IMG/VR virus record: IMGVR_UViG_2582580933_000022
From: a virus
Lineage: Duplodnaviria > Heunggongvirae > Uroviricota > Caudoviricetes
Length of the DNA stretch: 9,782 bases
Reading direction: 5' to 3' (one strand)
Of this stretch, positions 283 through 7,549 are shown piece after piece (the first letter of the stretch is position 1; each line of letters begins with the position of its first letter). The position numbers and the translations under genes were made by a program. A model generated the notes under the pieces. The model was not told the DNA's origin. It did not search any database and saw only the letters and a program-made list of their open reading frames with translations.

Positions 283-355
283 TGTGCCCTCATCGTTCTG
301 ATAGCCTGGTGTCGTCGGGTCCTTCCTGGAATTATGGCCCGTTACGGGGCGGCGG

Positions 356-883
356 TTACTCGCCTTTGTTCTGTAGCAACTTCTCAGGCACGTTTCCGGT
401 AGTTTCCATCAGGTAATCAGCCAGTATCTGTGGCAGGTTTTCGTCAAGTCTTGCACATGCGTTACATGCTTTGGCTATTTCCCTTTTTAGTTCATCCAGC
501 ATATACGGCCTTATATCGGGAAAGCGCCTTTGCATTGTGAGCGGGAGGCTGTCCATGATTGATGAAATCTGACTCGCTAGTTTTGAAATCGCGTAGATGC
601 AAAACTTTGTATCAATCACCTCGCCGCGTTCGCGTTCGTTTTTAAGTTCCTGCGCTTCCGCCTGGGCCGTCATTAATCTGATTCTTACGCGTAAAAGTTC
701 ATCATCATCAATCTCGCCTTTGTCGTTTGTAAGCTGGTTAATTGCATTGTTAACCCTATTGTCTATCACGCTGGCAACATCATAAAACGCCTCACGGCCT
801 TTACGCTCAACGGGAGTTACTCCCCACTTGTCGAACGCTGTCGCACTTACGCGGCAGCTTTGCGCCATAGTTTTTTTGTTCAT
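356..883 (-). CDS. terminase small subunit, lambda Nu1 family
   Basis: Full-length by-eye alignment to lambda Nu1 (181 aa): N-terminal MNKKTMAQSCRVSATAFDKWGV vs MEVNKKQLADIFGASIRTIQNWQEQGMPV, and a strongly conserved block LMTAQAEAQELKNERERGEVIDTKFC...LPLTMQRRFP vs LTRAQADAQELKNARDSAEVVETAFC...LPLSVQRRFP. Start placed at ATG 883 by homology; in-frame alternatives are ATG 898 and GTG 910. None has a strong SD. Confidence 0.8.
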   Translation of the reverse strand: MNKKTMAQSCRVSATAFDKWGVTPVERKGREAFYDVASVIDNRVNNAINQLTNDKGEIDDDELLRVRIRLMTAQAEAQELKNERERGEVIDTKFCIYAISKLASQISSIMDSLPLTMQRRFPDIRPYMLDELKREIAKACNACARLDENLPQILADYLMETTGNVPEKLLQNKGE

Positions 884-1009
884 CAGGTGCGATTTCATCA
901 ATATCCCCACTTAGTTAAGGTTTCAGGTTGGTGTGTTGGTGTTATCTTTCCCTTTTTATTCATAGAGATAGAGCGAAAAACAAAACCACCACCACCACCC
1001 TGAAAAAGC

Positions 1010-1054
1010 TCATAAATAGCGAAAAATCGCAAGGTCGCCGCCCCGTAGCCTACC
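1010..1054 (-). other. lambda-type cos site: cosN 12-nt cohesive-end core at 1043..1032 (minus strand) with conserved flanks
   Basis: Minus strand reads GGCTACG-GGGCGGCGACCT-TGCGATTTTTCGCTATTTATGA. The 12-mer is identical to the lambda cohesive end, and the next ~22 nt match the lambda left end (CGCGGGTTTTCGCTATTTATGA) at most positions; the upstream flank resembles lambda GGTTACG. It lies 149 nt upstream of the Nu1-like gene in the same orientation, as in lambda. Confidence 0.75.
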
Positions 1055-1099
1055 GGATCGCCGGAAAGGACCCGCCAGCCAGAACGGGCCCTAATTTCA

Positions 1100-3526: not shown

Positions 3527-3768
3527 GCTGTCTGCTCTCCGGTTTTAACATTGATGGTTGTCACCTGTTCCGCTTCGGCAATCTCCCGTTCTGTCAGTGT
3601 GGCAAAGTTTGCCGCCGCTGTGGTCATGAATGCGCTTATCAGTTCGGGATGTGCTTTCGCGTATCCCTCTCCCGCGTTGCGGTCGATGATTTTTATCGCC
3701 ACCCTCAGCCAGTGTTCTGTCAAATCAAGGGCGTGAGATTGTGGTTTTTTTGCGTGCTTCGTTGTCAC
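3523..3768 (-). CDS. hypothetical protein, 81 aa, translationally coupled to ssb
   Basis: GTG start at 3768 with GAGGT SD 7 nt upstream; stop overlaps the ssb ATG. No family recognised. Confidence 0.45.
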   Translation of the reverse strand: MTTKHAKKPQSHALDLTEHWLRVAIKIIDRNAGEGYAKAHPELISAFMTTAAANFATLTEREIAEAEQVTTINVKTGEQTA

Positions 3769-3810
3769 AGGCTTTACCTCACAGCAATAAAATAAAATTT
3801 TTGCATTTTA

Positions 3811-4045
3811 ACCCTTCACCTGTTCACCTTTTGCGATTTTCCCTTTTTATTCATGGTGTTAAGGGGTGAACAGTTTCACAAAAACTATTCACCAACTGTT
3901 CACCACTGTTCACCCTTAAAGCTCAATAAATAATCAAAAAGGTGAACAGTGAATAGTTTGGTGAACAGTTCACAAATAACTGTTCACCCTGTAATATACT
4001 GATATAAAAGACATTTATGACAGGGTGAACAGTGGTGAACAGTTA
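3811..4045. repeat. replication origin iteron array: 9 perfect copies of GGTGAACAG/CTGTTCACC plus degenerate copies, with AT-rich spacers
   Basis: Perfect 9-mers counted by hand: CTGTTCACC at 3820, 3896, 3906, 3980; GGTGAACAG at 3865, 3941, 3960, 4024, 4034. Degenerate copies near 3814, 3885, 3950. AT-rich stretches at 3921-3940 and 3991-4020. Located immediately 3' of the replication gene. The core TGTTCACC is, to my recollection, the P4 alpha-binding type I iteron of ori/crr. Confidence 0.8.
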
Positions 4046-7195: not shown

Positions 7196-7549
7196 ATGAA
7201 ATACGAATTCTTTGCAACCAGTAGTTCAGGAATGGATGTATATATAGTGACCGTATCCAATGACACTGGGCCTTTAATTATGAAATGTAACTGCGCTGCT
7301 GGTGAGAAGGGGATTTTATGCAGGCATAGAAAAGCTCTTATTACTCGAAAAATTAAAGGTGTTTTTACACCGCCAAGGCGTAACGACCCAGAAAAACTAA
7401 AGGAAGCAATGGACTTAATTGCTGTGTATGGGATCGAAAGAAAGTTAGAATTATACACTGCAGAGTTAGAACAGGCGGAGCAAACATGGTTGATCGTTCG
7501 TTCTGCTATAAAATCCAAGATCAACTCTCTTGTTGAACCCAAAGGCTGA
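7196..7549 (+). CDS. small SWIM zinc-finger domain protein, 117 aa, function unknown
   Basis: Motif VYIVTVSNDTGPLIMKCNCAAGEKGILCRHRKAL matches the SWIM signature CxCx(n)CxH with the conserved upstream hydrophobic strand. AAGGT SD 9 nt upstream; 27-nt gap after the RHH gene; AT-rich like its partner. Confidence 0.55.
   Translation: MKYEFFATSSSGMDVYIVTVSNDTGPLIMKCNCAAGEKGILCRHRKALITRKIKGVFTPPRRNDPEKLKEAMDLIAVYGIERKLELYTAELEQAEQTWLIVRSAIKSKINSLVEPKG

Follow-up and report, generated by a model that had tools for sequence, protein, structure and literature searches.

The segment at positions 911-1099 of the window (the whole 9,782-nt stretch analysed here, IMG/VR record IMGVR_UViG_2582580933_000022) is probably the cos1 packaging site of a phage-inducible chromosomal island (PICI) of the EcCIIHE3034-like kind. 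It is built of two modules, and the small terminase (TerS) encoded by the island would recruit to it the large terminase (TerL) of a helper phage. The elements expected to be used by TerL are lambda-like, while the part predicted to be read by the small terminase differs from lambda. The initial annotation, made from the sequence alone, had proposed that a satellite presents here a helper-compatible cosN next to a recognition region of its own. This interpretation is largely supported: the window carries a PICI gene set without a large terminase, and its lambda-like part is limited to cosQ, cosN and the 31 bp that follow. The genes of the island, in the order integrase, primase, single-stranded DNA-binding protein (SSB), gpE-like, gpD-like, AlpA, cos, terS and a 93-aa open reading frame (ORF), are on the minus strand, and the cos site is therefore read on that strand; base pairs are counted from cosN, with bp 1 at position 1043.

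The first module comprises cosQ, cosN and a short spacer. The cosQ element (GGGTCCT; 1067-1073, minus strand, bp -30 to -24) is identical in sequence and spacing to that at the right end of lambda, where cosQ is required for packaging termination. The 12-nt cohesive end GGGCGGCGACCT of cosN (1032-1043, minus strand, bp 1-12) agrees with lambda in 12 of 12 positions, as had been claimed, and occurs once in the window; by our own calculation, chance alone would produce about 0.001 exact copies in 2 x 9782 nt. On the minus strand, 850-1160 contains GGGTCCTTTCCGGCGATCCGGTAGGCTACG, GGGCGGCGACCT and TGCGATTTTTCGCTATTTATGAGCTTTTTCAGGGTGGTGGTGGTGGTTTTGTTTTTCGC in direct succession, and cosN is flanked by ACG on one side and TGCGATTTTTCGCTATTTATGAG on the other, which is the nick context of lambda. 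It is here that a gpA-type large terminase of the helper is predicted to nick. The spacer between cosN and cosB (1001-1031, minus strand, bp 13-43), with the core CGCTATTTATGAG, corresponds to the lambda I2 interval.

Ungapped comparison with lambda (J02459) shows 24/31 identical positions over bp 13-43 and 28/40 in the 40 bp upstream of cosN, cosQ included. The lambda-like flank noted previously is therefore real, and its estimated length of about 20 nt was too short: it extends for about 31 nt, and also upstream through cosQ, which had not been mentioned. Beyond the spacer, identity is approximately at background (7/17 over bp 44-60 and 31/74 over bp 61-134), which bears out the view that cosB is unlike that of lambda. 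A blastn search against 50,697 phage records confined the phage-matching stretch to 998-1075 (78 bp, 86-89% identity to lambdoid phages, E ~1e-18). No nucleotide match was obtained in these records for the approximately 100 bp between this stretch and terS.

The second module, cosB, contains only two R-like elements. The R3-equivalent GGGTGGTGGTGGTGGTTTTGTT (979-1000, minus strand, bp 44-65) includes a (TGG)n tract at bp 44-59, followed by TTTGTT. The minus-strand tract had been recognized in the initial annotation, with its plus-strand counterpart placed at 984-997; the CCA repeat ACCACCACCACCACCC occupies 985-1000. Within cosB, GGTGGTGGT is located at bp 51-59. The equivalent element is at 53-64 in lambda (R3), at 50-58 in phage N15 (GGTTGTTGT) and at 51-59 in L007, a complete lambdoid prophage. 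Linker scanning has mapped N15 R3 to bp 48-60 (PMC9026076). The R2-equivalent (922-939, minus strand, bp 105-122) is inverted. Its core ACACCAACC at 926-934 (bp 110-118), which reads GGTTGGTGT on the plus strand, takes the exact position of R2 in L007 and adjoins lambda R2 at 109-120. The two elements form the best inverted repeat of the region (921-933 with 993-1005, 13 nt, 92% complementary). They are proposed as candidate sites for the island TerS, the R3-equivalent as the primary one, bound by its winged helix-turn-helix (HTH), and the R2-equivalent as the second. Between them is an A/T-rich spacer (940-978, minus strand), in the position of the lambda integration host factor (IHF) site I1.

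In prophage L007, GGTTGTTGT occurs three times: as R3 at bp 51-59, as R2 in inverted orientation at bp 110-118, and as R1 at bp 176-184. Since GGTGGTGGT and the inverted ACACCAACC are found at the R3 and R2 positions of L007, and a third copy (R1) is absent from the window, the cosB described as diverged is best understood as a two-site (R3 and R2) derivative of an N15-type cosB, with T-to-G changes that convert GGTTGTTGT into GGTGGTGGT. To judge by this resemblance, it is a close N15-type derivative and not novel sequence space. With lambda the window shares identical cosQ and cosN, the succession of cos and a Nu1 homologue, and a direct R3 at about bp 50-60 followed by an inverted R2 at about bp 110-120. 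The sequences of the R sites are, in contrast, unrelated to CGTTTCC(T/G)TTCT; lambda R sequences of the CGTTTCC type are absent from the window cosB, and the lambda arrangement R3-I1-R2-R1 is not found. The IHF consensus, R1 and the A gene are also lacking. From N15 the window differs in its cosN, which is that of lambda and not GGGCGGCGTCCG, and in having no large terminase gene.

The terS gene (356-898, minus strand) follows directly and encodes 180 aa from ATG 898, the start chosen by RefSeq in near-identical islands. Alternative starts are GTG 910 and ATG 883. The gene begins at bp 146 with ATG 898, and the distance of about 150 bp from cosN to the gene given in the initial annotation is roughly correct, being 121-148 bp according to the start codon. 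Its assignment as Nu1-like stands: the protein matches Pfam PF07471 with 84.3 bits (cut-off 30), the phrog_57 match covers its full length, and it is 37% identical to lambda Nu1 along the whole protein. Its predicted layout consists of an N-terminal winged HTH, a central helical region and a lambda-like C-terminal region, the latter 47% identical to lambda over residues 111-168. In lambda, gpA is bound by this C-terminal region. In addition, the island TerS has a 12-aa C-terminal tail that phage TerS proteins do not have. The closest phage TerS is N15 gp1 (48% identity in tblastn, 44% in a MAFFT alignment), and in the DNA-binding domain the same alignment gives 58% identity to N15 gp1 and 35% to lambda. 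A PDB search with a profile of the clade retrieved lambda TerS 1-98 (6HN7_B, E=3.7e-6) and 1J9I (E=0.046); the single sequence gave no match in PDB.

The recognition helix reads ISVQAFDKW in N15 and L007 and VSATAFDKW in the islands. The Q-to-T change affects the residue that corresponds to lambda R17 and Rpp R21, both of which have been implicated in R-site recognition (PMC6739421). Variation among relatives is unevenly distributed along the protein. Of the variable codons in the DNA-binding domain, 25 show synonymous differences alone and 6 alter the residue; the C-terminal third has 13 of the former kind and 34 of the latter. Purifying selection on the DNA-binding domain is thus strong. The island TerS combines a nearly invariant DNA-binding domain with a mosaic and highly polymorphic C-terminal third. 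Of 91 loci, 86 have an uninterrupted terS frame; the gene is frameshifted in three relatives and truncated in two.

An IMG/VR scan with a DNA pattern yielded 90 loci. Because retrieval by a DNA motif would be circular, loci were also retrieved with the TerS protein, which resulted in 80 loci, 76 of them E. coli-type. The TGG core TGGTGGTGG is present in 75 of these 76, starting at bp 45-51, and occurs also in other genera. The R2 core ACACCAACC, which was part of no search pattern, is present in all 76: in 75 at bp 110, and in one at bp 107, the latter having a tract shorter by 3 nt. Islands of Enterobacter and Citrobacter encode TerS that is only 55% identical, and keep CTGGTGGTGGTGTTGTT or CTGGTGGTGGTG at bp ~50. 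In three of four Enterobacter/Citrobacter island types ACACCCAC(C/T)TG is found near bp 110, while the intervening sequence has diverged.

Alignment of 53 distinct sequences reveals conservation peaks at cosQ, at the ends of cosN, at bp 22-35 (CGCTATTTATGAG), at R3 and at R2. Of these, cosQ is invariant or nearly so, CGCTATTTATGAG is invariant, and both cosB blocks are kept throughout. The A/T-rich spacer is less conserved, with 9/39 invariant columns. The non-lambda cosB is linked to the island's own TerS in every relative examined, and no TerL-sized ORF follows terS in any of the 31 loci with enough downstream sequence.

Eight cosN 12-mers are paired with the same island cosB and terS, namely GGGCGGCGACCT in 66 of 91 loci, GGGCGTCAGGCG in 10, GGGCGGAAGGCG in four, and others more rarely; all of them begin with the same five bases, GGGCG. 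The variant GGGCGTCAGGCG recurs in lambda-like phages carrying Nu1 and A (L191). The presence of eight cosN variants with one cosB/terS fits separate cutting and recognition modules, in which the cutting module would follow the phage population and the recognition module the island. No correlation was observed between the C-terminal allele of TerS and the cosN variant, and one TerS allele occurs with three cosN variants.

The module was detected in 533 of 5426 complete E. coli genomes. Neither TerS peptides nor a 36-nt cosB pattern found it in species-representative genomes, and it seems to be absent from the single representative genome of each species, that of E. coli included. Its attachment sites are yejM/tRNA-Pro, clpS, phoQ, narP, and the inside of gene E of lambdoid prophages.

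In the proposed mechanism, cosQ, cosN and the first ~31 bp past the nick would be kept lambda-like for the gpA-type TerL of a lambdoid helper. This enzyme would nick cosN to produce 12-nt cohesive ends, and packaging would end at the next cos. The remaining part, cosB, with the TGG-repeat R3 at bp 44-65 and the inverted R2 at bp 105-122, no R1 and no recognizable IHF site, would be read by the Nu1-family TerS encoded directly downstream. With T and not Q at the equivalent of lambda R17, this protein is predicted to bind sites of the GGTGGTGGT type rather than N15-type GGTTGTTGT sites, while its lambda-like C-terminal region would recruit the helper large terminase. As an outcome, island concatemers would be packaged preferentially into heads built by the helper, and the island would probably compete with the helper for its large terminase. 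We infer that the island TerS, rather than the helper TerS or a heterodimer of the two, is the reader of cosB.

A more specific version of this proposal describes a third route for cos satellites. In it, a complete Nu1-type TerS would act without the helper TerS on a private two-site cosB that arose from the N15-type site through a T-to-G switch, with a matching Q-to-T change in the recognition helix, and would recruit gpA directly to a lambda cosN; its polymorphic C-terminus would track the TerLs of helpers, and an inverted helper-type cos2 would offer a second entry in many relatives. We hold this version tentatively, with somewhat less than even confidence.

Several observations weigh against a site read by the island TerS on behalf of a helper TerL. 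The TerS C-terminal region is only ~41-47% identical to that of lambda, and between lambda and phage 21 a comparable C-terminal divergence already alters the specificity for the TerL partner. The R sites of the island are 1-2 positions per 9-mer away from N15-type sites, and for this reason an N15-type helper TerS might read them too. Sequence alone does not tell in which register the protein would sit on the triplet repeat. With up to one mismatch allowed, no IHF consensus (WATCAANNNNTTR) was found in 899-1031. An AlphaFold2 model of TerS built with 24 homologues reached a mean pLDDT (predicted local distance difference test score) of 57.8, and less than 50 in the DNA-binding domain. The helix order of this low-confidence model is compatible with a winged HTH and a helical region, but its quality is too low for the fold to be confirmed. 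The expectation that a nested island shares the cosN of its host prophage failed at L012, where the island has GGGCGTCAGGCG and the interrupted prophage has GGGCGGCGACCT. No report of an island TerS that binds cosB or contacts a helper TerL was met in the literature searched. Finally, transfer of the IHE3034 and 18098 islands was poor, at only <1-110 transductants/ml after induction of resident prophages (PMC6092414).

Another explanation is redirection of the kind described for Rpp, in which the island TerS would heterodimerize with the helper TerS, the hybrid domain would read cosB, and the helper TerS would contact TerL. In EcCICFT073, RppA, encoded by the gene after cos1, binds the helper TerS and redirects it to the island cosB (PMC6739421, PMC9026076). 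The two kinds of islands are alike in int, alpA, primase, the gpE-like and gpD-like genes, the HTH gene, cos, a gene for a small DNA-binding protein and the 93-aa ORF. They also share a lambda-like cosQ/cosN with a cosB unlike that of lambda, a second cos in many members, and a candidate binding site at bp ~48-65 with the same triplet repeat. In these otherwise syntenic islands (capsid, decoration, HTH, cos, rpp or terS, 93-aa ORF) terS takes the exact position of rpp, and cos1 of the Rpp type has the same triplet motif inverted (CACCACCACCAC, bp 54-65). Furthermore, Rpp and TerS have a common winged-HTH fold, and heterodimerization through that domain is documented (PMC6739421, PMC9026076). 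The polymorphic C-terminal region, with its low similarity to that of lambda, also speaks for this explanation.

The two types differ in several respects. The window encodes a 180-aa Nu1-family TerS with a lambda-like C-terminus instead of Rpp, the triplet repeat has the reverse orientation (GGTGGTGG in the window, CACCACCAC in the Rpp type), R3 has an R2-like inverted partner, and the gene starts at bp 146 as opposed to 102. The proteins RppA, RppB and RppC have 135-153 aa and are without a TerL-binding region, unlike the full-length island TerS, which aligns with Nu1 through its C-terminal region (PMC9026076). Neither TerS nor its clade profile matched RppC in the PDB search (E<=1), while the positional counterpart of TerS in island L008 matches it (6HLK) with E=2.4e-31. 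An Rpp identity of the window protein was rejected on its length, its alignment with Nu1 to the end and the lack of RppC similarity, and heterodimerization by a TerS of this form is considered unlikely.

It is also conceivable that the cos is borrowed from a helper: an N15/L007-type cosB would then be read by the helper TerS, and the captured island terS would be redundant, with no private specificity. The cosB is 74% identical to the cos of prophage L007, in which R3, R2 and R1 are all GGTTGTTGT, and the positions of R3 and R2 coincide, R2 being at identical bp 110-118. The TerS DNA-binding domain is 54-58% identical to those of L007 and N15. Satellites that copy a helper cos are known, as P4, SaPIbov5 and island L006 illustrate. 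However, every island variant shows the T-to-G changes of R3 and R2 (GGTGGTGGT and inverted GGTTGGTGT), as do islands of other genera, and these changes co-occur with T for Q at the lambda R17 equivalent (SATAF in the islands, SVQAF in N15 and L007). R1, present in L007, is absent. TGG-type cosB was not found in the phage records searched or in TerL-linked loci, and a redundant gene does not agree with terS kept intact in nearly all loci and with purifying selection on its DNA-binding domain. We regard a borrowed cos as quite improbable.

The last alternative, that cos and terS are inactive remains of a decayed lambdoid prophage which have lost their packaging function, could draw on the poor transfer of the IHE3034 and 18098 islands (PMC6092414), the visibly deleted cos2 of the window and the few frameshifted terS copies, and it is very improbable in view of a gene set that is PICI-like and not prophage-like, block-wise conservation across 53 distinct sequences, the many attachment sites, the presence of the module in ~10% of complete E. 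coli genomes, and the selection on the DNA-binding domain.

The island belongs with those E. coli islands of the 2018 catalogue that encode TerS (EcCIIHE3034), and not with the better-studied Rpp type (EcCICFT073). EcCIIHE3034 (NC_017628.1, 920272-930825) has the same module of capsid, decoration, cos, terS and 93-aa ORF, and its TerS (WP_000835278.1) is the same protein as that of relative L004. It differs from the window island in its attachment site (cspD-clpS compared with tRNA-Pro/yejM) and in the island backbone. The IHE3034 and 18098 islands were noted as encoding TerS and as transferring poorly (PMC6092414). A further parallel is offered by the pac-type TerS(S) of Staphylococcus aureus pathogenicity islands (SaPIs), where a satellite small terminase with its own recognition site is a partner of the helper large terminase. 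These islands differ in headful (pac) packaging, in an unrelated TerS family and in the need for a separate Ppi protein against the helper TerS, whereas the window has a cos-type site with a precise lambda cosN.

A PICI with lambda cosQ/cosN and a different cosB has already been published for EcCICFT073 (PMC6092414, PMC6739421, PMC9026076). The two-module cos design of PICIs is on record, as are E. coli PICIs with a terS of their own, and nothing is overturned here. In the literature searched, the cosB anatomy of TerS-encoding E. coli PICIs and its N15-type derivation are undescribed, no account of helix/repeat covariation and no TerS test for these islands was found, and functional study of such PICIs does not go beyond the 2018 catalogue. 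If the island TerS alone redirects TerL, E. coli satellites would have at least three routes: copying the helper cos, reprogramming the helper TerS by Rpp, and using a TerS of their own. The presence of the module in about a tenth of complete E. coli genomes, O157:H7 and O55:H7 backgrounds included, bears on the spread of the islands and their cargo. The pairing of GGTGGTGGT with T and of GGTTGTTGT with Q would make a compact, testable case of evolving terminase-DNA specificity, and such islands are a possible source of orthogonal cos/TerS pairs for cosmid-style delivery.

Pfam and PHROG scans, together with gene content, identify the whole element as a PICI-type E. coli phage satellite of ~10 kb. 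A P4-type integrase (9782-8541, integrase domains in Pfam) is followed on the minus strand by a D5-type primase (5861-4056; Pfam D5_N/Pox_D5/DUF5906), and the SSB gene comes after the primase in gene order. The lambda gpE-family capsid gene (2973-1846; RefSeq start 2886 in near-identical islands), the gpD-family decoration gene (1836-1495) and an AlpA-family HTH gene (1483-1100; Pfam PF05930, phrog_2790) directly upstream of cos come next, all on the minus strand. The conserved 93-aa ORF (282-1, minus strand; phrog_1561, E=1e-56) is the last gene of the island, and annotation of related loci places it after terS/cos2 in TerS-type and Rpp-type islands alike. The scans detected no large terminase, portal, protease, tail or lysis genes in the window, and the large terminase is absent from the full island too. 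A promoter scan of 280-1500 gave no promoter-like site and only weak terminator-like matches.

A 99%-identical copy is a ~10-kb insert at tRNA-Pro, between yejM and yejO. This is the site given for EcCI11368.1, and the 2018 catalogue has islands at the same attachment sites as the window island and its relatives (PMC6092414). The genes and layout of Gram-negative PICIs are present: int, alpA, pri/rep, a length of ~10 kb, unidirectional genes, an own attachment site, and the lack of lysis and tail genes. Three other classes were considered and rejected. Capsid-forming PICIs (cf-PICIs) are defined by their own large terminase, portal, protease, head-tail connectors and HNH, while the head genes here are gpE-like and gpD-like only, plus terS, with no TerL, portal or protease. 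A P4-like element was rejected on a cos of lambda and not P2 type and on the absence of TerL, portal and protease, and a prophage fragment because of the genes present and their distribution. Capsid and decoration proteins of the gpE and gpD families are encoded by the satellite itself, without portal, protease or scaffold; in EcCICFT073, transfer and interference reportedly do not require the homologous genes (PMC6092414).

The window also retains a remnant of an inverted second cos, cos2 (317-355, plus strand), with cosQ at 317-323 and ACG, the nick and GGGCGGCG at 344-354. It adjoins the stop codon of terS. Comparison with L004 and L005, which have a full cos2 with a phage-type cosB of ~190 bp (lambda-like or 21-like R sites), shows that the remainder of cosN and all of cosB have been lost. 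In a set of 84 related loci, cos2 is full in 29, takes the GGGCGGGAGCAT form in 10, is missing in 41 and is truncated as in the window in four.

In the Rpp-type island L008, CACCACCACCAC at bp 54-65 of cos1 (3660-3842, minus strand) corresponds to the triplet repeat of the window on the opposite strand, and its cos2 (3005 onward, plus strand) is complete, of the N15/L007 type, and has GGTTGTTGT in three places. L006 (3001-3451) is a sister island located in a prophage capsid gene; it has a lambda-type cosB and a 64-aa truncated Nu1-like ORF, lacks Rpp and a full TerS, and has HEPN and DUF262 genes next. L012 (NZ_OZ547086.1, 3655000-3690000) is a TerS-type island nested in gene E of a lambda-like prophage, a helper-embedded configuration. 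In the window island itself, the sole sizeable plus-strand ORF (7196-7549) encodes 117 aa with a CxC...CxH motif, and is situated in the variable region that extends from the integrase to the replication genes.

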